Notes: generated from the sequence alone by a model not told the origin. DNA of 64,000 nucleotides from an uncultured Candidatus Saccharibacteria bacterium (GCA_964426385.1 CAYRQF010000001.1:21712-85711), one strand, 5' to 3'; positions 3,035-20,741 are shown, counted from the stretch's first letter. A program made the numbers and translations.

Positions 3035-3130
3035 TCTGTGATTTTATCATAAAATAAAGGTTTCCAAAGGGTTTGACTTTGATACTCGCCTGGGCTATTT
3101 TTAACCCGAACCAACCACAGATCATTCATT

Positions 3131-4168: not shown

Positions 4169-4194
4169 ATATCCATCAGTTCTATCTTCACGAA

Positions 4195-4226: not shown

Positions 4227-4309
4227 GGGGAGCCTTGTTTTGGTAGGGTAAATGGAGTAATCTCGATGGGAAAGACGAAAACAACGAACCTCAACAAACA
4301 CTCTTTGAC

Positions 4310-5485: not shown

Positions 5486-5502
5486 GCCACCGTTCCTTCG
5501 AA

Positions 5503-5534
5503 GAAAGCCCCGCAGCATGTGCTGCGGGGCTTCG
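5503..5534. terminator. bidirectional terminator hairpin between convergent purM-like and tsaD
   Basis: AGCCCCGCAGC-ATGT-GCTGCGGGGCT perfect palindrome. Confidence 0.6.
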
Positions 5535-5538
5535 ACGT

Positions 5539-6714
5539 TTATAAGCTCCAATTCGAATCTGCTTTTATGGATTCAAGTGGCGGGACTGGTTTACCAGAAG
5601 CTATCTCCAAATATCCTGCGATGCCGATCATGATCGAGTTGTCACCAGAGAGGTGTTGGTCTGGAACATGGAGGATTACATTCGGGAAGTTTTTTTCGAT
5701 CATATTCTTCATCTCACTTTTTATATATCCGTTCGCGGAGACTCCACCACCGATGATGAGAGTCTCGATGCCGTATTCTTCTATCGCTCGTTTAGTCTTT
5801 TTTATCAATACTTCTGTCACCGCCGTTTCGAATTCTAACGCGATATCTGTTTTTGTTTGCTCGTCTAAATCTCCAAGCTTTTTTATTAGGTATAGCACCG
5901 CTGTCTTGATACCAGAGAACGAGAAATTATAATTGTCTGACCCGATCATCGGACGGGGAAGTTTGATGTCTTCTCGTTTTACTCCGAGACGTGCGAGTCT
6001 AGAAACCTCGGGTCCACCCGGGTATGGGAGACCGAGTAGTCGTGCGACCTTGTCGAAAGCTTCTCCGAGAGCGTCGTCGACGGTAGTACCGATCTTTTCG
6101 TATTGTAGCCAGCCTTTGATCAGCACTAGTTCAGTATGTCCACCGGAGATAAGGAGAGCGAGAGCTGGGAAATGAAAATCAGAAAGATTTATCTCTTGAG
6201 ATTCAGACTTCTTTGAGTCGATAAGCGTCGATAGAACATGACCCTCCATATGGTTCACTGGCATAACTGGTATGTCCCACATGTATCCGAGTGCTCGAGC
6301 GAAGTTCACCCCCACCCAAAGTGCTGGTTCGAGGCCGGGTCCTGTTGTGACGGCGATATGGTCAATATCAGGTTTTTTAATAGTCCTCGCGATATCGATA
6401 ACACTCTCGACGAGATCAGTTTCCCGCACGAGAAGCTCTCGTAGATAATTCTCTTTGCTTTCAGAAAATTTCGAATCAGAATCGCTATATAGTCCAGCAG
6501 ATTTTAAGTTTTCAATCAGAATGGGCGCGAGATTTTTAGCATGCTCACGTTTCGCTACTGTGGGGAATACACCGCCGAACTCTTTGTGAATTTCTATCTG
6601 AGACCGTACGAGGTTCGAAAGGATGCGAAAAGAAGGCGCATTTTTACCGCCTGTAATCTCGAGTATGGATATGGCTGTCTCATCACAACTTGTTTCGATA
6701 CTTAATATTTTCAT
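5539..6714 (-). CDS. tsaD: tRNA N6-adenosine threonylcarbamoyltransferase TsaD (Kae1/YgjD family)
   Basis: N-terminal MKILSIETSCDETAISIL signature. Confidence 0.85.
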   Translation of the reverse strand: MKILSIETSCDETAISILEITGGKNAPSFRILSNLVRSQIEIHKEFGGVFPTVAKREHAKNLAPILIENLKSAGLYSDSDSKFSESKENYLRELLVRETDLVESVIDIARTIKKPDIDHIAVTTGPGLEPALWVGVNFARALGYMWDIPVMPVNHMEGHVLSTLIDSKKSESQEINLSDFHFPALALLISGGHTELVLIKGWLQYEKIGTTVDDALGEAFDKVARLLGLPYPGGPEVSRLARLGVKREDIKLPRPMIGSDNYNFSFSGIKTAVLYLIKKLGDLDEQTKTDIALEFETAVTEVLIKKTKRAIEEYGIETLIIGGGVSANGYIKSEMKNMIEKNFPNVILHVPDQHLSGDNSIMIGIAGYLEIASGKPVPPLESIKADSNWSL

Positions 6715-6840
6715 ATACTGTTTCGCTTGCCCCGTATGAAGCCGGGCTTCGTATCGGGGTCACAGCTAGTCTCTATAGACAGGATTTTCATAAGAATTCA
6801 CTCACTATATACGAATATCCGAAAATGTTAAGATTTACCT

Positions 6841-7431
6841 ATGTCTAAATCGATTTTCATCATTGGCCAGTCTGGCTCGGGTAAGGACACTCTGGCCGCA
6901 AGCCTCATCGAATATTTGGGAGGAGAATCAAAAGTGCTCTATATATCGACAGGCGAGGAGCTCCGAAAATTTACAAAAGGAGAGTATCTGACTGCGAAGC
7001 TTGCCAAATCCAACAACGAGAAGGGTCACATTGCACCATGGTTTGTTATCGTGGGGTGCTGGTTCAGGAAACTGAGCGAAGAATTTACTGGAGAGCAAAT
7101 AATGCTCTGGAACGGAACACCACGGTCTGCCAAAGAATTCGAGATACTTTCTCAGATGATCGAGTTCTATGGCAGGCATGCAGATATGATTCACCTCCAG
7201 GTACCAGACGAGGAATGCTTGAAAAGGATCACAGACCGGCAAAATGCTATAGGACGAGAAGAAACAAAAACCGAACAATCAATAAGAAACAAGCTTCAGT
7301 TTTATTACGATAAAGTCTTGCCGGCTATTGAGCTAGCTAAGACAGATCAGAATTTCACCGTTCATGAGATAGATGGGGCGGGGAGTAAGGAGGAAGTTTT
7401 TGAGAGGGTGAAGAAAGCCCTGTCGATATAG
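6841..7431 (+). CDS. P-loop nucleotide/nucleoside kinase family protein (AAA_33 / adenylate-kinase-like)
   Basis: Walker A GQSGSGKDT at N-terminus; about 196 aa, typical NMP-kinase size. Confidence 0.45.
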   Translation: MSKSIFIIGQSGSGKDTLAASLIEYLGGESKVLYISTGEELRKFTKGEYLTAKLAKSNNEKGHIAPWFVIVGCWFRKLSEEFTGEQIMLWNGTPRSAKEFEILSQMIEFYGRHADMIHLQVPDEECLKRITDRQNAIGREETKTEQSIRNKLQFYYDKVLPAIELAKTDQNFTVHEIDGAGSKEEVFERVKKALSI

Positions 7432-7432
7432 G

Positions 7433-7505
7433 TGCGCGATAGAGGATTCGAACCTCTGACCTACCCCACGTCAAGGGGTCGCTCTACCAACTGAGCTAAC
7501 CGCGC
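7433..7505 (-). tRNA. tRNA-Val (anticodon GAC)
   Basis: Reverse complement folds as a cloverleaf: acceptor GCGCGGT/ATCGCGC, T-loop GGTTCGAATCC, anticodon loop TTGACGT; no encoded CCA. Confidence 0.85.
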
Positions 7506-7609
7506 GATAAGAGAAACAATACTATAAAAGCGGGCTTGATTCAAGTAAAATTAAGGCATAAGATAGTCCCCGAGAGAGAAGATCGTTTAACCCAACAACT
7601 CAAGAAGTC

Positions 7610-8005
7610 ATGATCAGCATAGCGGTTGTTTTGCCAACGATTGAAGAGGGGCAGGAACTCTTCTGTGTGTCTTACAGTACGATAGTGCACAAAGCGGATG
7701 GTGAGACCAAAGGCCACTTCTTCTTTGCCGAAGACCTGGAAGACCCGACCGTAAACCTTATATTGGAAAAGGTCCACAGTCTTCTCGAAGATCCAGAGTG
7801 GTCAGGATTTCTACTGATACTTCTTCGCGGTGAAGAAGAAATGGCAGGTAATATGCTTGGTTTGCTCGAAACCAAGCTAGCTGGTGAAAAACGACTGAGT
7901 ATTTTCATCGATGACCCTGGAGAAGAAGATCTGTCTGTTCCGCTCACGTTCGACATAATGCACAGAGCGTCACTGATCGGTTCCTTGGCGAACCACAAGA
8001 ACTGA
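7610..8005 (+). CDS. hypothetical protein (131 aa)
   Basis: ORF between two tRNAs, followed by a terminator hairpin at 8012-8040; no recognisable motif. Confidence 0.3.
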   Translation: MISIAVVLPTIEEGQELFCVSYSTIVHKADGETKGHFFFAEDLEDPTVNLILEKVHSLLEDPEWSGFLLILLRGEEEMAGNMLGLLETKLAGEKRLSIFIDDPGEEDLSVPLTFDIMHRASLIGSLANHKN

Positions 8006-8011
8006 GAAATG

Positions 8012-8040
8012 AGGGGCCTTTAATCAGGCCCTTTCTCGTT
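8012..8040 (+). terminator. rho-independent terminator GGGCCT-TTAATC-AGGCCC plus TTTCTCGTT
   Basis: Stem-loop followed by a T-run. Confidence 0.5.
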
Positions 8041-8102
8041 GCCAAAAAAGCGAAAAATGATATACTCTCATTGTTTTTAGGCTATGTGCCGAAAAGACAC
8101 AT

Positions 8103-8174
8103 GGCCCCATCGTCTAACGGTTAGGACAGCAGGTTTTCAATCTGTTAATCGGAGTTCGATTCTCCGTGGGGTCA
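8103..8174 (+). tRNA. tRNA-Glu (anticodon TTC)
   Basis: Acceptor GGCCCCA/TGGGGTC, T-loop GTTCGATTC, anticodon loop TTTTCAA; possible promoter TTGCCA-N16-TATACT at 8039-8066. Confidence 0.8.
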
Positions 8175-8251
8175 CAAAATAGAGAGCTAGTTCGAGCGCT
8201 CTAGAAGTGCTACAGGTTTATAAATAAGACAGTATTATTAAGTGTTAGCAA

Positions 8252-9727
8252 ATGAGTAAACCAATAAACCTATTGTCATTGGTGCAGGCAAAAAATACCC
8301 TGTCTAATTCAGCATTTGAAAATTTCAAAAGTCACTATCTTCTGGAATTTAGGGACAGCGAAATAGACGACTTGTCTTCCTTGATTATCTGCCTGAATGA
8401 AAGTGGGTGTTTAATTCCGGATTTGGACAACTTTGTAGTTGGATATAAAATACCTCAAATTGGAAAAGAGTTTGATCTTCTTCGTTTTGGGTATGAACTC
8501 ATAATTAACATAGAGTTAAAAAAGACGAGTGACGAAGAGAAAATTAAAAGACAGCTTGCACGAAATAAACACTACCTTAGTTTTGCAGGACTCAAGACGT
8601 GTCACTATATGTATTTGTCTGAGTCTGGTTTATTTTTTAAACTTGGTGGATCTGGTGAAATTGAGAACATAAAAATTCCAGAACTTACAAGACAGCTTAA
8701 AGAACAGGCTTTGTCACAAGAACAAAATTTAGATGATTTCTTTAATCCTGCAAGTTACTTAGTGTCCCCGTTCAATTCGACTGAAAGATTTCTTGCTGGC
8801 GAATATTTTCTAACTCATCAACAGGAAGAGGTCTCTGATACAGTGATGGATTATCTCGCAACACACACAGAACCTGGTTTTATCAGTCTCAAAGGGGGTG
8901 CTGGAACAGGTAAATCTTTGCTGGTCTATCATATTGCAAAAGACGCACTTAAAGCTGGCAAAAAAGTACTAATCATACATTGCGGAATACTCAACCAAGG
9001 CCACGACCTACTTAAATCGATAGGCTGGGAAGTTCAACCTATCCGCTTATATAAAGGCTTAAAAATCTCAGATTATGACCTAATAATCATAGATGAAGCG
9101 CAGCGTTTATTTGATTACCAATTCAAACACCTCTCAAAGGAAGTCAAAACCAGCAAGGCTTTGTGTATCTTTTCTTTCGACAAACTTCAAACCTTAGCTG
9201 CTTTTGAGGACAGATTTGATATTGAATGTCAAATATCTTCACTTATTCCAATCTCAGACCACACACTCTCAGAAAAAATAAGGTCGAACAAGGAAATTGT
9301 TGACTTTATTGTCATGTTGTTTAACAAGAATAAAAACTATGAAATTAGAGGAGGTAAAAACATATACTTAAAGTATTTTTCTACAAACAAAGATGCTAGT
9401 GATTATCTAAGTAGTTTGGATAAAGATGAGTGGCAATTGCTAAGATTTACGCCCTCACTGTTCAGTGTCGAACACCATGAGTCCTATTTTCGACAGGACA
9501 CACCAACATCTCATGGAATAATTGGGCAAGAATTCGACAATGTAGTTGTAGTGATTGATGAATTATTTTCTTACCACGAAAGTGGTCAGCTCGTTTATCG
9601 CGGTAGATCTTACTATCATCCGAGAAAAATGTTATTTCAGAATATCACTAGAGCAAGAAAGAAAGTACTAGTCGTAATCATTAACAACGAAGAGCTACTT
9701 GAGAGATGTGTGCAAATACTTAGATAA
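8252..9727 (+). CDS. DUF2075-like protein: N-terminal NERD/PD-(D/E)xK-like nuclease domain plus SF1 (Dda/RecD-like) helicase ATPase
   Basis: Walker A GGAGTGKS, Walker B IIIDEAQR, motif-VI-like NITRARKKVLVV; N-terminal EFDLL...ELIINIELKK resembles a PD-(D/E)xK core; about 33% GC, much lower than flanks; directly downstream of tRNA-Glu. Confidence 0.6.
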   Translation: MSKPINLLSLVQAKNTLSNSAFENFKSHYLLEFRDSEIDDLSSLIICLNESGCLIPDLDNFVVGYKIPQIGKEFDLLRFGYELIINIELKKTSDEEKIKRQLARNKHYLSFAGLKTCHYMYLSESGLFFKLGGSGEIENIKIPELTRQLKEQALSQEQNLDDFFNPASYLVSPFNSTERFLAGEYFLTHQQEEVSDTVMDYLATHTEPGFISLKGGAGTGKSLLVYHIAKDALKAGKKVLIIHCGILNQGHDLLKSIGWEVQPIRLYKGLKISDYDLIIIDEAQRLFDYQFKHLSKEVKTSKALCIFSFDKLQTLAAFEDRFDIECQISSLIPISDHTLSEKIRSNKEIVDFIVMLFNKNKNYEIRGGKNIYLKYFSTNKDASDYLSSLDKDEWQLLRFTPSLFSVEHHESYFRQDTPTSHGIIGQEFDNVVVVIDELFSYHESGQLVYRGRSYYHPRKMLFQNITRARKKVLVVIINNEELLERCVQILR

Positions 9728-9841
9728 GGCTCACAATCATATCTCTCGAGATGGGTCGAAGTGGTTATCAAGTAAACCGCCAGAAAAGCATTACTGGGTA
9801 ATAAATTTAATTGGTTCCATCTCGAGAAGGCTTACAATACC

Positions 9842-9876
9842 AAAAAGTCTTGGAAGTATTTCCAAGACTTTTTGTT
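9842..9876. terminator. bidirectional terminator AAAAGTCTTGGA-AGTAT-TTCCAAGACTTTT
   Basis: Perfect 12-bp palindrome flanked by A/T runs. Confidence 0.6.
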
Positions 9877-9890
9877 ATTGAACTAATATG

Positions 9891-9919
9891 AAAAAGCCGG
9901 CTGGTGGGCCGGCTGTTCC
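9891..9919 (-). terminator. terminator for the lpxC-like gene (GCCGGC-loop-GCCGGC with T-run on the minus strand)
   Basis: Hairpin plus AAAAA on the plus strand (TTTTT on the minus strand) immediately after the minus-strand stop. Confidence 0.5.
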
Positions 9920-9933
9920 AAAAGGTTCAATTT

Positions 9934-10731
9934 TCACCTCGCACAATTCTTGATGGCGAGGAAGTCTGGCTTGTGGCCGGACCGTACGCTGAGCAGGTGC
10001 CCCGCTGGCAACTCGGTGTGGTAGAGGAGGCTCATCGCCCCAAGCATGTCGCACAGGCGATGGCTGGCAGCATTCTGTAGCCAGAGATCGTGCGGCTCGA
10101 GATGAGGCCACGATACACGATGGTCGTGCTTCCAGATCCCAAGCAGTCTCAGAGCTGGAGCCATACTGCTCCACAATTTTCCGTACGCGGGGGCATAAGC
10201 TTTGAGATGACCTACCAACGCTACAGGATCTCCAGAGTTCCACGATAGCGAGTTCTCGCCGATGCCAGGATAGTCGATAGACACATCCACTCGGAGTTCC
10301 GTATCAGACCACCCTTGAGAGATCTCTGTCCGCGCCATCCCCGAAACCCCGGAAGTCTCGAACCTCCTGATGGCGAAGGGGATGAGACCGTCAATCCGAG
10401 TTTTGCTCTCTATTAATTCCCAGAGTTCGTAGGGTCTGCCGTGATATGGTGGCCAGCCGCTAGGGCAGTGGATCGTTACATTGTCTAGCCCGAGCCAACG
10501 CAAGACTCCGATATGCTCGTATACATTCAGTTGCTCGCCGTCTTCGTTCTGGAGCAGTAGACGCTTGAATCGATGTTGAAGTAATCGGTGATCTATAGGC
10601 AGTACTTCATCGGCGGTCTGCCACCACCAGCCTCGCTCAGCCATCGGTGTGAAGGTGATGGTCGAGGGGTGTCCCCAATAGTCTAGACCGGAGCAGGACA
10701 CTACGTCCGTGAGAACTTTTCTCGTGATCAT
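9934..10731 (-). CDS. LpxC-like UDP-3-O-acyl-N-acetylglucosamine deacetylase family zinc hydrolase
   Basis: Collinear LpxC motifs: VYEHIGVL (EH pair), SHRLCDMLGA (HKMLD, HxxxD zinc site), SGHKPDF (SGHALN); N-terminus TRKVLTDVVSCSGLDYWGH matches the LpxC start; probable start at internal Met (10731); about 58% GC and Trp-rich, atypical for this genome. Confidence 0.5.
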   Translation of the reverse strand: MITRKVLTDVVSCSGLDYWGHPSTITFTPMAERGWWWQTADEVLPIDHRLLQHRFKRLLLQNEDGEQLNVYEHIGVLRWLGLDNVTIHCPSGWPPYHGRPYELWELIESKTRIDGLIPFAIRRFETSGVSGMARTEISQGWSDTELRVDVSIDYPGIGENSLSWNSGDPVALVGHLKAYAPAYGKLWSSMAPALRLLGIWKHDHRVSWPHLEPHDLWLQNAASHRLCDMLGAMSLLYHTELPAGHLLSVRSGHKPDFLAIKNCAR

Positions 10732-11243
10732 TTCGTCGGATTTTGTAACCCTGCTTCGGCACAATGCCTCAGCTTCTGCGGATAGTCTATGGGAAGTCGT
10801 TTAAAAGGTCAATAAAAGCAAGAACACCTCAGATTTTCCGAGGTATTCTGTGTTGCGCCCAAACGATTTTTCAGGAAACGTCAACGGGCTTATTGACTTT
10901 TTATTCGCTTTATCACAATATTCGGATAGATCTTTCTGATATGGAAACCTACGAAGTACCAGCTGCGACGGCAGCGACGCAACAGCGCTTTGAGCGTATG
11001 AAGCGTAGACTCCGGGGTCTGTATGAGCAAGGAAGTGTTTCGGTTTCATTAGTGCAAAGGAGGATGCAAACCCTCTGTATGCCTGACGCAAGTCCAGTAC
11101 TGTCCGAGCTTACCCTCGGGACGTTCGTCAGTTTGTCCACCGGCAGAGCACACCCGTCTCTGCGATCAAAGCTATTGGTCCGTACACTTACCCTGTACAG
11201 ACTTCTTCACGCGGCTAGACTCGCGTGACACCCCCTACATGGG

Positions 11244-11270
11244 AAAAGGCCTCACACTGTGAGGCCTTTT
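11244..11270. terminator. bidirectional terminator AAAAGGCCTCACA-CTGTGAGGCCTTTT
   Basis: Perfect hairpin flanked by A- and T-runs, just downstream of the stop of the large minus-strand gene. Confidence 0.65.
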
Positions 11271-11282: not shown

Positions 11283-14200
11283 TTATATGGGGACTCCGCT
11301 CGAGTTTATATTTATCGGAAGCTCGCACGTGTAGATCATGTTCCAGTCTTTTCGACGTTCGTAGCTTTTGAGCGCAGTAAGCAGGGAGGCCGTACATGTT
11401 CTCTGAATACTATTACCGTTGATGTTGAGTGTGATCGGCTGAGAGAAATTCACCATATTCGGATGGAGCCAGACAGATAGGTTCGTGACATTGTTCGTTG
11501 TAACATTCACCGTGTTCCCGGTGATGGTCGCTTCAGCTTTTCCGGCCTGAAGATTGACTGTGTCTACTGCGAGACTCCAATTATTAAAGTTTGTCTGACT
11601 TGAACAGCCGCCGTCGCCCTGAGGTGTTGCACGATTGTAGGCGATCGTACCTGTGCCGTACGAGTTGATAGATAGCCACATTGTGTGTGGGCTCGGATCC
11701 TCGTTCCAGACAGCATTCCAATTACCGCCAACATTATAAGTTCTCCATGGGTTGATGGCGATGACATGATTGCGATATGGATTTCTGGAGTAGCTGTTAA
11801 CTGTACCCGTTTGGCCATTTAGGAAATTCCTCCAAGCCACTGCGCCAGGCTCTGTGGCTGTCGTCGAGGTATCGAAACCGTGTCCCGGGACCATTGGATA
11901 TTCTATAAGGCTGTCATTTGGATTGTTGGAGCCTATTAGCTGATGAGCTTGTCGTGCGAATTCTACAGCGGTCATGTGATTGCGGCACTCCATTTCTGGA
12001 TCAGCGTCGGTATTTTGATAGTAGGCGTCATTAGTTCCGTGAATAGTATGAATAGGTAGGTCGGTGAGAGACGCCCATGAGCCAAGTGACCAGGCTCCGC
12101 CATTGGCCATTACTGCCGAGAGTCTGTCATTCAAGCGATGTGCCATATGATACGATCCGATACCTCCCATAGATGTGCCGGTCACAACTATTTTGTTGTA
12201 ATCGATATTATATCGTGATGCGATCTCGGTAATGATGTCGATAAGGTAATCGTCTGCCGACGGTACGTCCCAGCGCGCAGGGTGAGTGAACATGTTTGCA
12301 TTGGTCTGGTATCCAGGAAGCATTGTACCGAACGGGGCGATAGGTGCCACGGCGATATAGTTTGAGTTATCGCTGTTCCTGCGGATAACAGATCTACCGG
12401 TCAGAGTCTCATCGTCGAGAACCCATTCGGTTATGTAACTATCGTTGGGGTCAGAAGTCCCTGGATAGTCGAGCTCTATAGGGTCAAATGATCCGCCCCA
12501 ATGTAGGAAAAACATAAGCCCGACCGGAGTATTCGGGCTGTAGTTCGGCGGAACTACCATATTGAACTCAGGTCTGTATGATTCTGTGGCAGGAGTAGCT
12601 GGGTCGTTCCATGCTGGGTATTTTGATACTAATGCAGGGAGAGTGAACTGTTGGTTGAACACTTCACCGGTTGGTTGCGCCACATAGTCATTGGGTTGGA
12701 CTTGGTCTATAACGCTATCGATAGAAGTGTTCCAGGCGGCGAGGTTCGGCTCGAGAGCTGTACGCGCTGCTCCTGATGCTGCGAGCCACTGCTCGGCTTG
12801 TGCGACTATCTCACTCTGCGATTGACCACTTCCGGCGGTAGCCCCACAGAGACCATTTATCGTTGCGGTGACGTCGATGATTTTATCCGAAGCGTAGCCG
12901 GCGGCGGTCATAGCGTTTATGATTCGTTGATTCATCGGCCATGGCCAGAGATCTTCATTGGTGAGCACGCCATCGACGTAGCGCTTCATGACAGTCGCGC
13001 CACCAGTAATACCTAGATTGTTCACAACGTTACCGCCGTTCGCAATGATGCTCGAGCAACTCGACGTGTTGTAGTTGTTCGATGTTGACCATTGGTTGTT
13101 GATACTCGTTCCACCGGTGCTCACGAAAGTGTTGTTCGTCGCTGAGTTGAAACCAGCTCCGCCGATATCACCGAGATATGGGTTACGGATATTGGTGTGG
13201 GATCCGGGCTCGATCACTCCTACACTATTCTCGAGTTGCACCCCTTTGATCTCTAGTGCAAACGGTCCAGCCCAGTCACGTGATGGGGTAGGGACATTGT
13301 GGAAACGTTGATCAGGTTTGAGATATGCGATAGAGCCTAGTATGCGAATATTTGCATTATCAGGATTGCCTTGCGCAAGGAAGGATGAATCAAATCCGTC
13401 GTGTCCAAATATTCCACTCGGCTGTTGGACGGTGTAGTTCGAGAAACTTTGCGTTGGGCTGACCTGTGTGCCGTTGTATTCGAGGAGGTTGTACGTAGCA
13501 GGCATACCGAGCGAATCCCATGTTCCGATACAGTTCTCACAGAGCGCGCCGTAACTGTTGTAGGACAAGGCAAATGCCTTTTTCGGTCCAGACATTTTCG
13601 AACCTTCCCATCGGGCGAACGCTCGACGGAACGTCGTATTGTCGCCCTCCTGAGAGTTACTAAAAGTTTTACGTGCACCTGCACCAAATCCGGCAACGTC
13701 TTCGAGTAGGTTGTTGTCACCGTGATGAACGCCGAAGATGTTGTTGTCGCCAGTATTCATCGGAGCCTTCCAGGCTACGACTCTGCGGATGATGTTGTTC
13801 GAAGAATAACCTAGAGATACGACACTTCCGCTAGAATCATAAGCGTCGAATCCTTCGAGGACGAACCAGTTGTTGTAACTGAGGTTTACAGGTTTGTTCG
13901 AACCTTGGCCATTAATTTTTACTGCACCGTCGTTCATCGCTCTCACGGTTATCGGACTTCCTGCGGTCCCGGATAGATTGTCCGGAGGGTCGATCATACT
14001 ATTCGCGCCTGTATACATACCATCTAGAAGTATGAGTGTCGCCCCTGGTCCAGCTACACTCCAAAAGTCATTTATTTTGAATGGGGAACTGATACTGAGT
14101 CCATTGCCAGTACCGGTCGGCGAAGCGTAGTAAGTTATCCCAGTTGTCCCGGTTGGTAGTTGCTCTACTACTATATTGTTCGGGGTTTGACCACCTACTG

Positions 14201-15362
14201 ATACGAGTATCGGGTCACGATCATTCCCAGACCCAGTGTATTTTACTGTGCCATTCATATTCACATCTGCTCCCGAATAGGTATTTATAATTTGATTATT
14301 TGGCGTCGAGCCTCCTACCGCAGTGAGTATGACGTCTCTGTCGTTGCCAACGCCTGCGTACTTAACCTCTCCATTACCGTTGACATCTCCAGGCCACAAA
14401 ACACGAACCCCACCTACAACTTTCGCGGCATTGGTCCCATATAGTGGAGCAGTAGATAGGTCTACCACAGAAGCTATGCTGACTGCGTTCGCGGTCATAA
14501 CAGCGAGGTGGTTTCTGTGGTGAACGGCGACATAGTAGGTTCCAGGAGTAAACGTCCCGAGTATCGGCGTTATACCATCGGTTGACATAACATCTCCATC
14601 AGCCTCTACTAGAGCCGGTTTGGATGCGACTATTGTCGCGGGGTTCGCAGAATTTCGTAACTCAACGACGATCCAGTCAACTATGGCATCATCACCGGTA
14701 GGATTTAGAACAGAACTCGATATAGTGCTTCCGGCACCACTAGTTAGAGTGTGGCCAAGGGCAGTATAGGGCTCTGTTAGAGGTATCAGGTTCGAATCAT
14801 TGAGTCCTGTGGACATTCTGTTCGTGGCCTGAATATATGGTCCCCCTAGAAAGACCCGGAGATTGTTGGTCGGGTTGTCCGGGCTTCTGCTCAAGCTATC
14901 ATCGGTAATATTGAATCGGTAGGTTACAGGTGGTCCGTCAACTCCAGTCGCTCTAGGGCCGGTGAATGCTCTAACAATGAGGTTATATTCACCTACTACC
15001 ATACTCGGACCGTAGAAGTTACCATTACTATCATCACGATATATGGCGTACGGAGCTTTGCTGTCTGACCTCTTCTTGCCGTTGATTTCAAACATAACAC
15101 TCCCTACTTCTTCTGGATCGGTCACAGCCTGAAAAGTAATCTTTTTGTTACCAGAGATATCGATAATAGCTCCATCAGCAAGTTCACCAATAGATAGCTC
15201 AGTTTCAGTATCGATAATAAGAACACTCTGTATCAGCTCATCAGAAACGATGGAGTCAGAGATACTAGCTGTAAATCTCTGATTCGAACTACTGCGCATC
15301 ACCGAGGCCGAGGATGCTAGTACAGCAACAACCGCGACCAAAAAGAGAACTTTTTGTTTCAT
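11283..15362 (-). CDS. large secreted multidomain protein: signal peptide, Ig-like region, dockerin-like Ca-binding repeats, right-handed beta-helix (pectin-lyase fold) and alpha/beta-hydrolase esterase domain
   Basis: MKQKVLFLVAVVAVLASSASV signal peptide (start probably 15362, not 15383); tandem GDVNGNGEVKYAGVGNDRDVIL / ADVNMNGTVKYTGSGNDRDPIL repeats; beta-helix-like GTTGITYYASPTGTGNG...; esterase nucleophile elbow VTGTSMGGIGS (GxSxG) and HGG-like FFLHWGGSFD. Confidence 0.7.
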   Translation of the reverse strand: MKQKVLFLVAVVAVLASSASVMRSSSNQRFTASISDSIVSDELIQSVLIIDTETELSIGELADGAIIDISGNKKITFQAVTDPEEVGSVMFEINGKKRSDSKAPYAIYRDDSNGNFYGPSMVVGEYNLIVRAFTGPRATGVDGPPVTYRFNITDDSLSRSPDNPTNNLRVFLGGPYIQATNRMSTGLNDSNLIPLTEPYTALGHTLTSGAGSTISSSVLNPTGDDAIVDWIVVELRNSANPATIVASKPALVEADGDVMSTDGITPILGTFTPGTYYVAVHHRNHLAVMTANAVSIASVVDLSTAPLYGTNAAKVVGGVRVLWPGDVNGNGEVKYAGVGNDRDVILTAVGGSTPNNQIINTYSGADVNMNGTVKYTGSGNDRDPILVSVGGQTPNNIVVEQLPTGTTGITYYASPTGTGNGLSISSPFKINDFWSVAGPGATLILLDGMYTGANSMIDPPDNLSGTAGSPITVRAMNDGAVKINGQGSNKPVNLSYNNWFVLEGFDAYDSSGSVVSLGYSSNNIIRRVVAWKAPMNTGDNNIFGVHHGDNNLLEDVAGFGAGARKTFSNSQEGDNTTFRRAFARWEGSKMSGPKKAFALSYNSYGALCENCIGTWDSLGMPATYNLLEYNGTQVSPTQSFSNYTVQQPSGIFGHDGFDSSFLAQGNPDNANIRILGSIAYLKPDQRFHNVPTPSRDWAGPFALEIKGVQLENSVGVIEPGSHTNIRNPYLGDIGGAGFNSATNNTFVSTGGTSINNQWSTSNNYNTSSCSSIIANGGNVVNNLGITGGATVMKRYVDGVLTNEDLWPWPMNQRIINAMTAAGYASDKIIDVTATINGLCGATAGSGQSQSEIVAQAEQWLAASGAARTALEPNLAAWNTSIDSVIDQVQPNDYVAQPTGEVFNQQFTLPALVSKYPAWNDPATPATESYRPEFNMVVPPNYSPNTPVGLMFFLHWGGSFDPIELDYPGTSDPNDSYITEWVLDDETLTGRSVIRRNSDNSNYIAVAPIAPFGTMLPGYQTNANMFTHPARWDVPSADDYLIDIITEIASRYNIDYNKIVVTGTSMGGIGSYHMAHRLNDRLSAVMANGGAWSLGSWASLTDLPIHTIHGTNDAYYQNTDADPEMECRNHMTAVEFARQAHQLIGSNNPNDSLIEYPMVPGHGFDTSTTATEPGAVAWRNFLNGQTGTVNSYSRNPYRNHVIAINPWRTYNVGGNWNAVWNEDPSPHTMWLSINSYGTGTIAYNRATPQGDGGCSSQTNFNNWSLAVDTVNLQAGKAEATITGNTVNVTTNNVTNLSVWLHPNMVNFSQPITLNINGNSIQRTCTASLLTALKSYERRKDWNMIYTCELPININSSGVPI

Positions 15363-15574
15363 AAAAATACTAGGACTTTGCAAAGCTGTTAATAGCCTAA
15401 TTATATGTCATTACGGCTCGTATAAATACGGATTTTGGGGGTGAGTGTGAACAACTAGACGGGTAGGCCGGGCGGTTAAGTTTAGTTGACAGTCAGATAA
15501 ATAGACGTTGTAAAACGGCCTGACGCTCCAACCAACTCAGGCATTTTACTTTGATTTCTGCCATACGTTTTAAT

Positions 15575-15615
15575 ACACTCCCACAAACCAAGGCTTGTGG
15601 GGGTGTATTCTTTTT
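15575..15615 (+). terminator. orphan terminator-like hairpin ACACTCCCACAA-loop-TTGTGGGGGTGT plus ATTCTTTTT; possible 3' end of a small RNA
   Basis: Strong stem plus T-run on the plus strand with no upstream plus-strand CDS. Confidence 0.35.
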
Positions 15616-15658: not shown

Positions 15659-16504
15659 ATGAATCTACGCGAAATAATCAGTATCTCTAGGCCACGCTTT
15701 TGGCTATATGAAATGGGGACATACTTTATCGGTGTACTTGTGGCGACACAATTCCTCGAGGACTTTTTACTACCAGACATCCTAATCTTCGGATTTTTCT
15801 TCTTGATACCGGCGAATATTCTGATTTACGGTATTAACGATATTTTTGACTATGAGACAGATCGGCTCAATCCGAAAAAGGTAGAATACGAAGCTCTCCT
15901 CGTCCCCGACAAGCACAGAGCAGTTTGGGTATGGATTCTCGCGACGAATATTCCATTCCTCGTTTACGCATTTACGATAAACGCGAAAACAGGATTATAC
16001 CTTCTCGTATTTTATTTCTTCGCGAGTTTTTATTCTGCGACACCTATCAGGGCGAAAATCCGGCCCTTACTAGATTCACTCTTTTCTGCCGGTCACTATA
16101 TCTTTACCGGGGTATTCGGCTACTTCCTCGCGGGTGGGGAGGGGTTTCCTCTAGTCGGTGTTGTCGCAGGTATGCTATGGGCGATGGCGATGCACGCATA
16201 CTCGGCTGTGCCTGATATTAAGGCAGATACCGATGCTGGTTTCAAAACTATAGCCACATGGCTAGGTAGAAATAAAACTATCGTTATGTGTCTCGTTTTC
16301 TATATTGCCTCTGCGGTGCTTTTCTCTACACTCATCGGAGTGTTTCCACTCATTGCAGTCCTAGCCTATGTATTCCTCATGATGAAGTCTTTGAGGACAA
16401 CGGACGATAATAGGTTATTTCAAATCTATACTTATTTCCCATGGGTGAACTTCATCACACCGATGGTGTGGTCAATAATTTACATGGTAACGAAGTTCGG
16501 TTGA
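15659..16504 (+). CDS. UbiA-superfamily prenyltransferase (lycopene-elongase/CrtEb-like candidate)
   Basis: Polytopic membrane protein; first Asp-rich motif YGINDIFDYETD (NDxxDxxxD) and second motif DIKADTDAG; divergent from the crtI-crtB-crtE block. Confidence 0.7.
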   Translation: MNLREIISISRPRFWLYEMGTYFIGVLVATQFLEDFLLPDILIFGFFFLIPANILIYGINDIFDYETDRLNPKKVEYEALLVPDKHRAVWVWILATNIPFLVYAFTINAKTGLYLLVFYFFASFYSATPIRAKIRPLLDSLFSAGHYIFTGVFGYFLAGGEGFPLVGVVAGMLWAMAMHAYSAVPDIKADTDAGFKTIATWLGRNKTIVMCLVFYIASAVLFSTLIGVFPLIAVLAYVFLMMKSLRTTDDNRLFQIYTYFPWVNFITPMVWSIIYMVTKFG

Positions 16505-16506
16505 GG

Positions 16507-18021
16507 CTAGAGCTCTTTTAGGGGGTTAGGGTGTTTTATACCTTCGATACGCTTATAGGCGAGCTCAGATGATATGAGGCATATCGGCATACCGATACCT
16601 GGGTTCGTGCCAGCGCCTACATAGTAAAGATTTTCGACGCGCTTACTTTTGTTGTTCGGTCTCATAAGTGTCTGCTTCAGAGTGTGAGCGAGTCCGAGAG
16701 CTGTTCCGCCGAAAGCGTTGTAGTCGGCCTTGAACTCTTCGTGAGTATACATCGATTCGTATTCGATGATGTCTTCCAAGTCCGGAATATCTAAATCTTT
16801 CTTCATCATATTTATCACCCTGTCACGGTACCCTTTCTTCTCTGCTTCGGTAAAAGATAGGTGAGACGCCACAGGAACTAGTACGAACAGTGTCTCTTTG
16901 CCCTCTGGTGCCACAGAGGCATCTGATTTTGATGGACAAGATACGTAGTACGAAGGATCGTCAGGGAATTTGGGATTGTCGAAAACTTCCTCAAAATTCT
17001 TCTTCCAGTCTTTGGAGAAGCGTAGGTTGTGATGAGTGAGAGATGGGACTTTGCGTGAGAGGCCGAGGAAAAGAATAAACGCCGATGGTCCCATAACGGC
17101 TTTGTCCCAATACTTTTTCTTATACGTTCGCAGACTATCTTCTTTTATCAAATTCATCTCGGTGAAATTCATGTCAGCATTTGAAACCACAAAGTCTCCG
17201 GTCACCATCTCTCCGGTAGAGAGTTTGATTCCAGTTACTTTGCTGTCCTCAACTAATATTTCAGAAACAGGGGAGTTGGTGTGGATTTTGGCGCCATGTT
17301 TTGTAGCGATATTCTCTAGCGTCTCGATGACTTTGTAGATTCCGCCATCTGGGTAGTACACGCCCATATCAAAGTCGATAAAGTTCATCATGTTGTATAG
17401 AGCTGGGGTCTTGTCTGGTGCGCTACCGAGGAAAACCAATGTATATTCTAGGATCTTTTTTAGTCTGTCATCTTTGAACCATTTGTTCAGGTAGCTTTCC
17501 ATCGTTTGAAAAGGATTCATCCGGAGGCCCTCTTTCATGAAATCTTTCTGCAAGAAATCAAAAATGGAATCATAATTCCTGTACATGAACTTATCTTTCG
17601 CAAGCTCGTATTGCTCGCCAGAGATTTTTAGGTATTTTTTGATTTTCTCGCCAGATCCGGCCTCGAGCTTCTCAAATGTCTCCAAATCCTTTGAAAGGTC
17701 TGAATACATATCTAGCACCGGGAATTTTTCGTCGCCAGGGAAGAACACCCTATAAGAAGGAGAAAGTTTTGTAAGTTTTAAATGGCTTTTTATGTCTTCG
17801 CCTAAAAGGTTAAAGAAATCCTCAAAGACATCTGGCATCAGATACCATGATGGTCCCATGTCAAAAATGAAGCCTTTTTCTTCAAAGACGCTCGCCCGTC
17901 CTCCCACATGGGCGTTCTTTTCGTATAGGCTCACCTGGTAACCCTTTTTCCCCAGGAGGCAGGCTAGTCCGAGTCCACCTATACCTCCACCGATTATGAC
18001 TACATGTTTTTTAGGTACCAT
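16507..18021 (-). CDS. crtI: phytoene desaturase (CrtI family)
   Basis: N-terminal FAD fold VVIIGGGIGGLGLA; C-terminal YYVGAGTNPGIGMP CrtI signature; 504 aa. Confidence 0.8.
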   Translation of the reverse strand: MVPKKHVVIIGGGIGGLGLACLLGKKGYQVSLYEKNAHVGGRASVFEEKGFIFDMGPSWYLMPDVFEDFFNLLGEDIKSHLKLTKLSPSYRVFFPGDEKFPVLDMYSDLSKDLETFEKLEAGSGEKIKKYLKISGEQYELAKDKFMYRNYDSIFDFLQKDFMKEGLRMNPFQTMESYLNKWFKDDRLKKILEYTLVFLGSAPDKTPALYNMMNFIDFDMGVYYPDGGIYKVIETLENIATKHGAKIHTNSPVSEILVEDSKVTGIKLSTGEMVTGDFVVSNADMNFTEMNLIKEDSLRTYKKKYWDKAVMGPSAFILFLGLSRKVPSLTHHNLRFSKDWKKNFEEVFDNPKFPDDPSYYVSCPSKSDASVAPEGKETLFVLVPVASHLSFTEAEKKGYRDRVINMMKKDLDIPDLEDIIEYESMYTHEEFKADYNAFGGTALGLAHTLKQTLMRPNNKSKRVENLYYVGAGTNPGIGMPICLISSELAYKRIEGIKHPNPLKEL

Positions 18022-18833
18022 GCGTATGTTTTTATACTGATAAGGATTTTTTGCCAGGCGTTTGTTTTCGCTCTTTTTGTAAATACGTCGTAGTCTTGTT
18101 TCTCTATCTGGTCCAATATGGCTTCGTATAGATTGCCAGCTAGGAGGATAGGGTAACGGGCAACCGGTGGAAGTAGGTGAATTCCCAATTTTGCTTTTGA
18201 AAAAAGTTGCCGAGCTTGGTTAATTTTAAAAATAATAAATTCCTTTGGAATATTTTGTGTCTTTATGTTATCCTCACCTATCCCATAGTTGTTCATCTCG
18301 TCTAATGGTAAGTATATCCTATCTTTTGTTTCGTAGTCCTCTCCTATATCACGCAAGAAATTAGTTAACTGCATGGCCTCAGCCAGTGCTGTCGCATAGG
18401 GCACAGCCTCATCTCTAAAGTCTCCAAATATGTGCATCATCATGAGACCTACAGATGTAGCTGACCCATACATATAGCCTTGAAGCTCACTCATATCAGC
18501 ATAACTACGCTTTTTGAAATCCATCAACATGGATGACAAAAAGGCGTCATTGTATTTATGAGGAATATTAAACTTATGCCTAGTCATCAGCATGGCATTC
18601 ATCTCAGGTCGTGCTGAAACGCCGACTTTTTCAGATGCTCGCCAGTCACTTATCCATTCGGCCAGCTTCTCTTCATTTCTTTCTATATCGACAATGTCGT
18701 CGGGGATTCTGGTCCAGGCATAAAGAGCGTATGTGCCGAGACGGATATGTTGCGGGAAGAATCTTGTTGCAAAATAGTACCCTTTACCGAATTTCTGGTG
18801 GATTCTTCTGCAGTATTCGAAGTCGTCTATCAT
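18000..18833 (-). CDS. crtB: phytoene synthase (squalene/phytoene synthase family)
   Basis: YCRRIHQKFGKGYYFATRFFP N-terminal region and MQLTNFLRDIGEDYE...RIYLP signature. Confidence 0.8.
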   Translation of the reverse strand: MIDDFEYCRRIHQKFGKGYYFATRFFPQHIRLGTYALYAWTRIPDDIVDIERNEEKLAEWISDWRASEKVGVSARPEMNAMLMTRHKFNIPHKYNDAFLSSMLMDFKKRSYADMSELQGYMYGSATSVGLMMMHIFGDFRDEAVPYATALAEAMQLTNFLRDIGEDYETKDRIYLPLDEMNNYGIGEDNIKTQNIPKEFIIFKINQARQLFSKAKLGIHLLPPVARYPILLAGNLYEAILDQIEKQDYDVFTKRAKTNAWQKILISIKTYAWYLKNM

Positions 18834-19810
18834 CTGTCACGTTTGGTTATCTTCAGAAGTAATGCATGCCATGTTTCTGCATCTGGAATTTTTCTTAGTA
18901 ATTTCTGAGTGTCAGCGATCAGCATGTCTCGCTCTGAGTTTATCTTTTCTAGTGTTCCTGAAGTGGTCACTAGGCTTCGAAGTGTGTCTCTTTCGGTTTG
19001 GTTCAGCACCTTGCCAAAATATTTCTTGAAAGCTTTGTTTTTAATTAGATAGAAAGATACCAGTGTTGCCTGGCGAGTTTCTATGTCCTGAAAAGTCTTC
19101 TTGTTGAGCTTCTTCTCATCACCGAATATGTCGAGGAGGTCATCATCTATCTGAAATAGCACGCCCATATTTTCATTGAGGGTGCTGTATGTTTTCTGAA
19201 GTTTCTTGGATACTTTGACCCGTCTTAGAGAGAGTCCTATTTCTGCAGGGTGGGTGAAAGTATATCGCGCTGATTTGAGGATTGTTTTCTCGTCTATTTC
19301 TGTTTTGGTCCAGTTCGTACGGGTAGACATCTCAACATCCATCATCTCGCCTATAGCTACCTGCTCGACTAGTTTGCAGAATATACTATGGGACTCTGCT
19401 TCTTTATTTTGCTTTATAAAAGCTTCATGAGCCCAGTTCAGTACGAGGTCTCCTGCTAGGAGGGCGTATGAATTTCCATAATGCTGATCTTTCTCCAGGC
19501 TGTGGAGTGTGCGGGTTCCGTGTCTGGACGGTGACTTGTCGATGATGTCGTCATGGATTATAGCCATCAGATGGACGAGCTCGATAGCGATAAGTTGGTT
19601 AATTATCTGGCGATCAAGCTTCGAGGACCCATATGCCAAGTAGGCGATATACGGGCGTATTCTTTTGCCATTCTCTGCAACTCGTCTTATGTGCCCTACG
19701 ATGGCGTGAGTTTTTTTACTAGAGGTGACAGTACAAGCTCTAGCGATAGACTTATCTAGGTGAGATAAGAAAAGAGGGTCAAAGACTGTTCTGAAGTCTC
19801 CAAGGTGCAT
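18830..19810 (-). CDS. crtE: polyprenyl (geranylgeranyl) diphosphate synthase
   Basis: GKRIRP, first DDxxD (IHDDIID) and second DDxxD (QIDDDLLD) motifs; likely start at internal Met 19810, 1 nt after the trxB stop. Confidence 0.75.
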   Translation of the reverse strand: MHLGDFRTVFDPLFLSHLDKSIARACTVTSSKKTHAIVGHIRRVAENGKRIRPYIAYLAYGSSKLDRQIINQLIAIELVHLMAIIHDDIIDKSPSRHGTRTLHSLEKDQHYGNSYALLAGDLVLNWAHEAFIKQNKEAESHSIFCKLVEQVAIGEMMDVEMSTRTNWTKTEIDEKTILKSARYTFTHPAEIGLSLRRVKVSKKLQKTYSTLNENMGVLFQIDDDLLDIFGDEKKLNKKTFQDIETRQATLVSFYLIKNKAFKKYFGKVLNQTERDTLRSLVTTSGTLEKINSERDMLIADTQKLLRKIPDAETWHALLLKITKRDR

Positions 19811-19811
19811 G

Positions 19812-20741
19812 TTAAGTATTCTTATGTAGATACATGTAGATATCCTCGAGAGCTTTGACTCCGTCACCAGCGGCGATGTTGTTCTGGTGGTAGAGCACAT
19901 CCGCACAGTCACCAGCAGCCCATATGCCTGGGACGCTCGTCATCTGAGTACGAGGGTCAGTTATGATTTTTTTGTATTTATCCATCTCGACTACACCCTC
20001 GGCAAATCCGGTATTTGGGATCTGTCCTATCTCTACGAAGATACCTTTGACAGGGAGTTCCGTCTCTACTTCACCAACTTTATATTTGAGTCCTGAGACG
20101 AATTTGTCACCGAGGATAGCTGTGATCTCTGCGTTCATTACAGCTTTGGCCTTCGGGTTCGCCAAAACTTTCTCGACAGTTATCTCGTCAGCGCGAAACT
20201 CGGTAGATCGTTGGATGATGGTGACAGATGAGCAATATGCGAGCAGTTGCGCAGCCGTTTCGAGCGCGGCGTTGCCACCGCCAAGTACGGCGACGTCCTG
20301 ACCTGAGAATAGTGGTCCATCACATGAGGCGCAGTAGGTGAGACCTCGGTGCTCGAGTGCATCAGCGCCGGGGATAGATGAGTCGAGTTTTCGGCGTCCG
20401 GAGCCTGAGGTGATGAGGACTGCGCGAGTTTCGAATGATTCTCCTGCGTTGGTTATCACAGAAAATACTTTGTCAGCTTTCGAGAGACCTTCGACTCGTG
20501 CACCAGTTTTGACCGTGAGGAACTCGCCCTCGTAGTAGGCGACGTGAGCGCGCAGGTCCTTGGCGAGCTGTGAGCCAGCGATCTCGGGCGTGCCGATCCA
20601 GTTGTAGATTTTCTCAGAGACGACAGATTGTCCACCGAATTCTTCGGCAACCATTAGGGTTTTAAGTTGCTTCCTCGCAGCATAGACTGCTGCAGCTGAG
20701 CCAGCAGGTCCAGCACCAATTATTATCAAATCGTATGTCAT
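19812..20741 (-). CDS. trxB: thioredoxin-disulfide reductase
   Basis: MTYDLIIIGAGPAG FAD motif, redox-active CASCDG, second NAD(P) fold GGGNAALE; real start at Met 20741 (track ORF is N-terminally over-extended). Confidence 0.85.
   Translation of the reverse strand: MTYDLIIIGAGPAGSAAAVYAARKQLKTLMVAEEFGGQSVVSEKIYNWIGTPEIAGSQLAKDLRAHVAYYEGEFLTVKTGARVEGLSKADKVFSVITNAGESFETRAVLITSGSGRRKLDSSIPGADALEHRGLTYCASCDGPLFSGQDVAVLGGGNAALETAAQLLAYCSSVTIIQRSTEFRADEITVEKVLANPKAKAVMNAEITAILGDKFVSGLKYKVGEVETELPVKGIFVEIGQIPNTGFAEGVVEMDKYKKIITDPRTQMTSVPGIWAAGDCADVLYHQNNIAAGDGVKALEDIYMYLHKNT

Follow-up and report, generated by a model that had tools for sequence, protein, structure and literature searches.

Saccharibacteria live attached to other bacteria, and the means by which they attach and feed are largely unknown. 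In Southlakia epibionticum, Tn-seq identified an essential envelope protein with a dockerin domain, which was proposed to target host glycans (PMC10633639). The locus analyzed here, in a 64,000-nucleotide stretch of DNA from an uncultured Candidatus Saccharibacteria bacterium (the window), offers a concrete candidate of such a dockerin-type envelope protein, in which a docking module is joined to two candidate degradative domains.

The ORF listing of the window places the gene on the minus strand at 11283..15383 with a TTG start. The ATG at 15362 yields a protein of 1359 aa that is 100% identical to database protein P0001, and at 4080 nt the gene occupies 6.4% of the window, in agreement with the single ORF of about 6% given in the preliminary description. 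The gene runs from 15362 to 11283, and the strand is corrected here accordingly. Scans with Rfam and for tRNAs returned nothing relevant near the gene. Its GC content of 0.46-0.53 is mildly above the window average and the flanks are themselves heterogeneous, so that we dropped a compositional island as evidence of transfer.

Based on AF2 models (pLDDT 86 and 84) and fold searches, the protein consists of a signal peptide, an Ig/Fn3-like domain, a dockerin-like module, a beta-helix, an alpha/beta hydrolase, and a C-terminal beta-sandwich (Table 1). Structure prediction had been suggested as a check of the preliminary description, and AF2 with Foldseek indeed recovered the beta-helix and alpha/beta-hydrolase folds. 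Scanned against Pfam and NCBIfam, both in full and piece by piece, the protein gave only weak alpha/beta-hydrolase matches, and none for the beta-helix, the dockerin-like module, or the C-terminal domain. The N terminus (MKQK, followed by VLFLVAVVAVLA and SSASV) follows the n/h/c pattern of Sec signals, and AF2 predicts a helix at residues 2-19 followed by a disordered stretch at 20-40, consistent with a Sec-type export signal. Each 50-aa block of the module, the helix, and the esterase is 78-90% conserved among eight full-length homologs, which we count as evidence of selection.

Table 1. Features of the gene and its flanks; nucleotide positions are counted from the first letter of the window.
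Feature	Position	Strand	Residues, basis or context
Whole gene	11283..15362	minus	1359 codons and TAA stop at 11283-11285
Predicted Sec-type signal peptide (MKQKVLFLVAVVAVLASSASV)	15300..15362	minus	about aa 1-21; sequence layout and AF2
Ig/Fn3-like beta-sandwich	14889..15239	minus	aa 42-158
X-module/dockerin-like module	14154..14867	minus	aa 166-403
Repeat 1 (WPGDVNGNGEVKYAGVGNDRDVILTAVGGSTPNN...)	14277..14396	minus	aa 323-362
Repeat 2 (SGADVNMNGTVKYTGSGNDRDPILVSVGGQTPNN...)	14157..14276	minus	aa 363-402
Right-handed parallel beta-helix	12903..14153	minus	aa 404-820; AF2, Foldseek, profile match, invariant columns
Helical linker	12693..12902	minus	aa ~821-890; AF2 helices 408-485 (model numbering)
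Alpha/beta-hydrolase esterase domain	11793..12680	minus	aa ~895-1190
Ser1064	12171-12173	minus	
Asp1112	12027-12029	minus	
His1161	11880-11882	minus	
C-terminal beta-sandwich	11286..11780	minus	aa ~1195-1359; AF2 pLDDT ~90; blastp
12-bp GC-rich hairpin	11244..11270		between convergent stop codons 11228 and 11283
15-bp hairpin, then T-run	15572..15609	plus	intergenic, between this gene and the divergent UbiA gene

Comparison with other genomes divides the protein in two. In related genomes, assigned to Saccharibacteria by synteny, the same locus holds a short form of 399-408 aa with signal peptide, Ig domain, and module. At the syntenic site lie the short forms P0225 and P0226, facing away from UbiA or following ftsZ-trxB with TsaD and LeuRS in the neighborhood, and long forms are located after ftsA-ftsZ-trxB. 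Bacteroidota, Bdellovibrionota, and Myxococcota have the beta-helix/esterase cassette of about 950 aa as a stand-alone unit, at about 50% identity; for Sphingobacteriales, Chitinophagaceae, Halobacteriovoraceae, and Sandaracinaceae this identity extends over 98% of the length. Given the short form at the same locus and the cassette alone in other phyla, the long protein is best read as a fusion. Unit 1 (aa 1-403) would comprise the signal peptide, the Ig-like domain, and the X-module/dockerin-like module, which form a complete protein in the sister genomes. Unit 2 (aa 404-1359) would be a mobile catalytic cassette of a PL9/PL6-like beta-helix, a helical linker, a Ser-Asp-His esterase, and the beta-sandwich, the last of which every full cassette homolog contains (50-65% identity). 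Several cassette homologs add CBM9, PKD, or laminin-G carbohydrate-type modules. Their neighborhoods in Halobacteriovoraceae, Sphingobacteriales, and the P0122 MAG contain housekeeping genes only, with no polysaccharide-utilization locus or substrate clue.

The beta-helix proposed earlier as pectin-lyase-like is well supported at the level of fold. AF2 pLDDT is mostly above 95 from aa 404 to about 800, and Foldseek matches the domain to the PL9 pectate/rhamnogalacturonan lyases Pel9A (1ru4, E 1.2e-7) and BT4170 (5olq) and to lyases of PL31 (6kfn) and PL6 (7o84; the family also includes chondroitinase B, 1dbg/1ofl), with E values of 1e-7 to 1e-5 and right-handed parallel helices of similar length. 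With a profile of the beta-helix family, matches (~5e-6; chondroitinase B 4.5e-6) were obtained to the cap at the N terminus of chondroitinase B and of PL6 lyases. This cap motif is shared with PL9/PL31/PL6-type lyases, and the sequence similarity is confined to it, a generic feature. Identity to these lyases is 11-15%, and the query family differs from them in having its own conserved C-terminal cap, WPWPMNQRI (aa 806-814). The query helix had no Pfam match at E<=1, and neither Pel9A-like_beta_helix nor Chondroitinas_B reached its gathering score with it. Cassette homologs show weak Pfam matches to these two families and to Esterase; against the two beta-helix families their best score is 24.8 bits, with the match limited to the first ~80 of the profile's 426 positions.

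It is possible, although somewhat doubtful, that the beta-helix is a glycoside hydrolase or a noncatalytic adhesin or passenger rather than a beta-elimination lyase. The fold is common to many GH families, with GH120 (3vst) and GH136 (5gqc) among the weaker matches, the catalytic region is covered by no lyase family HMM, and Foldseek TM-scores to lyases are only 0.5-0.6. However, the top matches are all lyases, and twelve residues are invariant, seven of them charged or polar and placed on successive coils as in PL9/PL31/PL6 lyases, which argues for catalysis over adhesion. Across 71 beta-helix sequences, E554, D555, R564, R580, Y601, E609, and N610 do not vary, and a calcium-dependent lyase would be expected to have such a mix of acidic and basic residues in its cleft. 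Lyases of PL1, PL6, and PL9 usually have invariant Arg and Lys next to Glu, Asp, and Asn.

The repeats belong to an X-module/dockerin-like unit, which in Flavobacteriales usually forms a C-terminal tag. This unit is built from an extended N-terminal segment, a seven-strand sandwich carrying VDWIVVELR (aa 228-236) and HHRNH (aa 281-285), two loop-helix repeats, and an EQLP end. The two tandem GDVNGNG-type repeats recognized earlier were confirmed: GDVNGNG begins at aa 325 and ADVNMNG at aa 365, 23 of 40 positions are identical between the units, and AF2 places a helix after each loop (341-348 and 382-388). VDWIVVELR does precede the repeats as first described; it is not a separate element, and forms one 238-aa module with them. 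The loop opens D-V-N-G-N-G, the 12th-position acidic ligand of the canonical F-hand is displaced by a six-residue insertion, and the DxNxNG loop of repeat 1 is variable across the module family. The sequence EQLPTGTTG at the module end was considered as a sortase motif and rejected, as LPTG is not LPxTG, is not conserved in homologs, and is followed by no transmembrane tail.

By fold search, the module resembles solved dockerins in three dimensions, and its best whole-module match is an X-Doc dyad, that of Clostridium thermocellum CipA (5g5d_B, 3kcp_A). Sequence identity to the CipA XDoc is only 16%. Unlike the latter, the query module lacks a Dockerin_1 match (Pfam PF00404; isolated module, E<=10), and a module profile found dockerin 3ul4_B among PDB sequences only at E 0.95. 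Further differences are the length of the repeats (40 aa each, with KYxGxGN inserted ahead of an invariant NDRD motif), an additional N-terminal segment of about 55 aa, the distribution (mostly Flavobacteriales and CPR for the module, cellulolytic Firmicutes for XDoc), and the internal position in the query protein, which we attribute to gene fusion.

The module could alternatively be a carbohydrate- or cell-wall-binding domain through which the enzyme would bind a substrate or cell-surface glycan directly, and not a protein-docking dockerin, although we consider this unlikely. The missing Dockerin_1 match would fit, as would P0227, P0246, P0342, and P0348, which combine the module with PG_binding_1 domains, and P0240, which is a signal peptide and the module alone. 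An invariant D-W-E-R...H-R-N-H set in the Ig sandwich could form a ligand site. Against this, the best structural match is the X-Doc dyad and not a CBM, and in carrier P0013 the module comes right after a true Cohesin domain (3.3e-16), in a scaffoldin-like arrangement. Identity of about 50% across thousands of paralogs with unrelated passenger domains is also better explained by one common partner than by varied glycans.

The alpha/beta hydrolase with a GxSxG elbow was likewise borne out. The nucleophile elbow is GTSMGG at aa 1062-1067 (G1062-T-S1064-M-G1066), and the triad of Ser1064, Asp1112, and His1161 is preserved in about 25 cassette homologs and lines up with the motifs of 3wyd and 3doh. 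A scan of the isolated domain puts Abhydrolase_2 marginally above its cut-off (25.3 versus 23 bits), and the full-length protein gives 22.8 bits; 3wyd is recovered by phmmer (2e-7), and Foldseek finds 3wyd (TM-score 0.80 normalized to target, E 8.7e-8) and 3doh (E 4.7e-8), as well as CE1 feruloyl esterases. The domain thus shares its fold, its GxSMGG elbow, and the order of its Ser-Asp-His triad with the C-terminal esterase domain of LC-Est1 (3wyd), a Thermotoga maritima esterase (3doh), and CE1 feruloyl/acetyl-xylan esterases. It differs from these in its identity of only about 19%, in large insertions (low pLDDT near model residues 560-600 and 750-790), and in being always embedded between the helical linker and the C-terminal beta-sandwich.

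That the protein acts on a polyester or lipid, with an esterase of PHA-depolymerase or cutinase type, appears highly improbable. The best NCBIfam match is indeed a partial one (1e-6) to the catalytic domain of extracellular short-chain-length PHA depolymerase type 1, homolog P0135 is named poly(3-hydroxybutyrate) depolymerase by JGI, and cutinase 7qjt was matched at 0.005. However, these matches span only ~60-100 residues around the nucleophile elbow and, at 28.5 bits where 150 are required, score far below the family cut-offs, the esterase invariably comes with the lyase-like beta-helix fused to it, and the carbohydrate-type modules of several homologs point to polysaccharide.

As the fold-level claims hold (secreted, dockerin-like repeats, beta-helix, GxSxG esterase), the most reasonable reading of the predicted domains is an extracellular, surface-associated polysaccharide-modifying enzyme, likely one that is docked at the surface and both deacylates and cleaves its polysaccharide. 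For the protein as a whole we favor, with modest confidence, a Sec-secreted multidomain enzyme that arose by fusion of the two units and combines docking, deacylation, and backbone cleavage. What we infer for the docking partner, calcium binding, lyase chemistry, and substrate, and for any host role, is as follows. After export, the dockerin-like module would hold the protein at a cell surface by noncovalent, probably calcium-assisted binding to a receptor of cohesin-like or other type. The Cohesin domain of carrier P0013 is the one indirect hint of such a partner; no cohesin came to light in the genome itself, where about 23 of the window's 58 larger ORFs were scanned. The esterase would remove acyl, probably acetyl, groups from a substituted and probably acidic polysaccharide, and the beta-helix would next bind and cleave its backbone. 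Attack on the cell wall of a host is speculation.

A search for the VDWIVVELR module in other proteins, proposed in the preliminary description, showed that at least 5680 protein clusters contain it. Of 258 carriers examined, 243 have the module as their extreme C terminus, ending in QLP; the named carriers are secreted proteins of Flavobacteriales, and one Flavobacteriales locus has at least five consecutive genes ending in the module. In this respect it resembles T9SS C-terminal domains (type A Por_Secre_tail and type B), which are also a common C-terminal tag on many unrelated secreted proteins of Bacteroidota. By contrast with these, the module is three times longer, has another fold at its end, and occurs in Saccharibacteria-type proteins; neither the module nor four Flavobacteriales carriers matched Por_Secre_tail, TIGR04183, or TIGR04131. 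The same Flavobacteriales locus also encodes proteins with a canonical Por_Secre_tail, which sets the module apart as a separate class, and we rejected its assignment as a T9SS C-terminal domain.

The idea that the module is a Bacteroidota T9SS-type sorting signal, carried along by gene transfer and without function in Saccharibacteria, is hardly credible: its strictly C-terminal position on very diverse cargo in Flavobacteriales and its presence on a Porphyromonas-type peptidylarginine deiminase, a classic T9SS cargo type, are outweighed by the missing matches to T9SS models and the coexisting Por_Secre_tail proteins, by a length of 238 aa with dockerin-like repeats at the end compared with a sandwich of ~80 aa, by conservation equal to that of the catalytic domains (79-84% per block in the eight full-length homologs), and by short forms at the syntenic locus that end in the module. 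Saccharibacteria are not known to have an outer membrane or a T9SS.

The Saccharibacteria module shows 50-57% similarity to Flavobacteriales copies, no less than these show among themselves. A reading built on this, which we regard as improbable, is that the X-Doc-like module, present on dozens of unrelated secreted proteins, defines a large docking-tag system of Flavobacteriales and was captured by the epibiont for its own Ig protein and degradative enzyme, using the same receptor. Such a receptor could be displayed by a Flavobacteriales partner cell, and the capture would then amount to mimicry of a host tag.

The enzyme parts of the protein are ordinary folds, and the docking module is widespread yet missing from Pfam and NCBIfam. 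Searches of the literature on T9SS and dockerins, Saccharibacteria and polysaccharide lyases, and noncellulosomal dockerins of Flavobacteria turned up neither the module nor the cassette. A Pfam or NCBIfam model of this abundant C-terminal module of Flavobacteriales would improve the annotation of thousands of proteins, and the module raises the question of a cohesin-dockerin-like display system alongside T9SS sorting. The locus also offers a natural pair of short and long forms at one site and clear residues to mutate.

The gene was earlier described as flanked by strong terminators and an upstream orphan hairpin. Both hairpins are present; the downstream one (-23.8 kcal/mol, z -5.6), a probable bidirectional terminator, was not scored as a terminator in a consensus scan because its T-run is only four long. 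The upstream hairpin (-22.8 kcal/mol) belongs to no obvious upstream gene.

The gene of the secreted protein occupies a minus-strand open reading frame at window positions 11283..15383, and translation from the ATG at 15362 gives 1359 amino acids, identical to database protein P0001. Each of the motifs quoted in the preliminary description was located in this translation, and its reading of the protein proved largely right at the level of fold. Two AlphaFold2 models calculated from family alignments, covering residues 404-1359 (pLDDT 86) and 1-420 (pLDDT 84), establish the predicted folds of all domains. The N terminus (MKQK-VLFLVAVVAVLA-SSASV) is laid out like a Sec signal, and the model shows it as a helix that runs into a disordered stretch, consistent with a Sec-type signal and predicted export.

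Features of the secreted protein (amino acid residues, aa) and of its genomic surroundings (window positions)
Feature	Position	Strand	Remarks
X-module/dockerin-like module	aa 166-403		compact, pLDDT >90
VDWIVVELR	aa 228-236
HHRNH	aa 281-285
GDVNGNG	from aa 325
ADVNMNG	from aa 365
Right-handed beta-helix	aa 404-~820		pLDDT mostly >95
Helical linker	between beta-helix and alpha/beta hydrolase		AlphaFold2
Alpha/beta hydrolase	aa ~895-1190		AlphaFold2
GTSMGG	aa 1062-1067
C-terminal beta-sandwich	after alpha/beta hydrolase		AlphaFold2
Schlafen-like/SF1 helicase gene	8252-9727		low GC, 0.35-0.39
ORF, 276 aa	9934-10764	-	no Pfam match; gene call in Logan contig too
ORF, 154 aa	10764-11228	+	no Pfam match; gene call in Logan contig too
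12-bp GC-rich hairpin	11244-11270		-23.8 kcal/mol; between stop of the secreted-protein gene and stop of convergent ORF 10764-11228
15-bp hairpin with T-run	15572-15609	+	-22.8 kcal/mol; divergent intergenic region, ~50 nt upstream of UbiA start
UbiA prenyltransferase	15659-16504	+
Amino-oxidase/phytoene-desaturase-like	16507-18021	-
SQS_PSY phytoene-synthase-like	18000-18833	-
Polyprenyl synthetase	18830-19912	-

A search for the module in other secreted proteins, proposed as a check in the preliminary description, showed that residues 169-403 share ~50% identity with the C-terminal ~240 residues of over 100 secreted proteins that are unrelated in their other parts, among them metalloproteases (reprolysin-type and others), subtilases, PKD, Kelch and beta-propeller proteins, and a Porphyromonas-type peptidylarginine deiminase. 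Carriers with a source name are proteins of Flavobacteriales MAGs. When 1.84 billion representatives were searched exhaustively with phmmer, the module was found in 8714 clusters at E<=1e-3 and in 5680 at E<=1e-10. It lies within three residues of the C terminus in 243 of the 258 carriers examined (94%), with [E/Q/A]-Q-[L/V/I]-P as the nearly constant ending, and 178 of the 227 with a complete N terminus begin with a signal-peptide-like segment. The distribution of the module is tag-like. In one Flavobacteriales MAG (GCA_964649165.1, locus L046, positions 1-9817), at least five consecutive genes end in this same ~240-aa QLP-terminated module, and an apparent sixth is cut off by the locus edge; among the passenger proteins are three Cys-rich unknowns of ~470 aa, a reprolysin-type protease and a PPAD-like deiminase.

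The label "dockerin-like" is supported at the level of fold, but the module does not belong to the Dockerin_1 sequence family, and it gave no match even at E<=10 in Pfam-A (2025) or NCBIfam (June 2026). It is a divergent, widespread dockerin-like variant modeled by neither collection. Protein P0013 (853 aa, ENA; 10 member sequences) carries a Cohesin domain (residues 441-556, 3.3e-16) directly before its C-terminal module, a scaffoldin-like order in a protein with no relation to cellulolytic Firmicutes. Alternatively, the module could bind a glycan or the cell wall, as suggested by the PG_binding_1 partner domains of P0227 and P0246. Another reading would make the module a T9SS signal that has lost its function; no T9SS C-terminal-domain matches were found in the module carriers scanned, and the presence of ordinary Por_Secre_tail genes near the module genes of L046 argues for a tag class of its own.

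The module is not C-terminal in all of its carriers. P0227, P0246, P0342 and P0348 (521-537 aa; sequences from short metagenome contigs) make up a family composed of a signal peptide, PG_binding_1, the module and an unknown ~150-aa C-terminal domain, so that the module is internal, as in the 1359-aa protein. In P0282 (1403 aa) it is positioned near the N terminus (residues 171-409), followed by Big_1, macroglobulin-like and Fib_succ_major domains, indicating that internal placement arose more than once. P0238 (1083 aa) has a subtilase-like N terminus, after which the sandwich half of the module (VDWILLELR ... HRNHLAIMS) occurs three times in tandem in more divergent form; behind every copy comes a repeat region of a different, shorter kind.

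The enzyme domains represent new members of folds already known. The beta-helix gave no match in Pfam. A profile of 71 beta-helix sequences matched chondroitinase B and PL6 lyases at their N-terminal cap (~5e-6), and the best fold matches by Foldseek were PL9 Pel9A, a PL9 rhamnogalacturonan lyase, a PL31 alginate lyase and PL6 alginate lyases; together with the model, these matches bear out the pectin-lyase-like fold that had been proposed. The family has twelve invariant columns, including E554, D555, R564, R580, Y601, E609 and N610, and a conserved C-terminal cap around WPWPMNQRI is among them. This set fits the pattern of a calcium-dependent lyase cleft, and lyase activity may be inferred from it; the beta-helix could alternatively be a hydrolase or an adhesin.

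The proposed GxSxG esterase was likewise recovered. Scanned alone, the region scored 25.3 bits against Abhydrolase_2 (cut-off, 23 bits), and sequence matches were obtained to LC-Est1C (3wyd, 2e-7) and to the Thermotoga esterase 3doh. Foldseek returned 3wyd (TM-score 0.80, normalized to the target) and then CE1 feruloyl esterases. Ser1064, Asp1112 and His1161 fall on the corresponding motifs in alignments with 3wyd and 3doh and are kept in ~25 homologs; the predicted catalytic triad is intact and conserved. A rival interpretation is that of a polyester depolymerase, and models of PHA-depolymerase-type esterases matched over the elbow region only.

Based on these domains, we infer that the module, probably with the help of calcium, tethers the enzyme to a cohesin-like or other surface receptor, where the esterase would strip acyl groups and the beta-helix would cleave an acidic polysaccharide. 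In an epibiont, the docked enzyme could serve in attachment or in feeding on the envelope or matrix of the partner. Earlier Tn-seq work in Southlakia described a dockerin-domain envelope protein as essential and proposed host-glycan targeting (PMC10633639), a precedent that makes such a role plausible. The finding of a receptor for the module, above all on a partner cell, would render the protein more significant.

Only seven other full-length homologs (67-77% identity) were present in a collection of 5.8 billion proteins, one of which, P0004, originates from an "uncultured Candidatus Saccharibacteria" MAG. Across the eight homologs, purifying selection is similar for all parts of the protein. 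Two short proteins, P0225 (408 aa) and P0226 (399 aa), comprise a signal peptide, the Ig domain of the long protein (39-40% identity) and the module, and end in ...ELPD or ...AQLP. Both genes are at the syntenic position: the P0225 gene and a UbiA gene are divergently oriented, like their counterparts in the window, and the P0226 gene directly follows ftsZ-trxB, with tsaD and leuS nearby. The gene of the long protein P0005 directly follows ftsA-ftsZ-trxB. Since 94% of carriers have the module at their C terminus, the long gene is most simply explained by fusion of a transferred ~950-aa catalytic cassette (residues 404-1359) to the 3' end of the short gene, which would account for the unusual internal position of the module. 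One alternative is that the module was inserted into an Ig-cassette protein, in support of which an Ig domain 31% identical to that of the 1359-aa protein heads the cassette proteins P0125 and P0132. The reverse course, loss of the cassette from a long form, is a further alternative; no cassette remnant was found downstream of P0225.

Other organisms have the whole cassette without the N-terminal 400 residues: its identity is ~50%, across 98% of the length, in MAGs that include Sphingobacteriales, Chitinophagaceae, Halobacteriovoraceae and Sandaracinaceae, and 41-45% in Absconditabacterales as well as in a second Saccharibacteria MAG. Genes neighboring three cassette homologs held no clue to the substrate. 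Without the rest of the cassette, the beta-helix is common among Acidobacteriota, Binatia and deltaproteobacterial MAGs, where two or three paralogs often lie in tandem. Beta-helix-only genes, 40-47% identical to the 1359-aa protein, form groups of 2-3 tandem paralogs at L014, L019, L020 and L022 (Acidiferrales, Omnitrophota and deltaproteobacterial MAGs), suggesting a diversifying enzyme family there.

Housekeeping genes within the window (ftsA, ftsZ, trxB-like, priA, tsaD, several aminoacyl-tRNA synthetases, dnaK and dnaJ) are in the same order as on the contigs of homologs. Judged by this synteny and by the closest homolog, rather than by a marker gene, the source is presumably a Saccharibacteria-type CPR bacterium. 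The orphan upstream hairpin of the preliminary description was found again at 15572-15609; it has no upstream plus-strand gene to terminate and matched no Rfam family, and may represent a regulatory element or mark where a small RNA ends. Composition changes sharply across 8252-11228, where the Schlafen-like/SF1 helicase gene is followed by a high-GC stretch (0.55-0.57) containing two ORFs. Between trxB and the gene of the secreted protein, this presumed Saccharibacteria genome carries a carotenoid-type cluster (window positions 15659-19912), which looks like an insertion, since trxB directly adjoins the long or short gene in the relatives L039 and L045.
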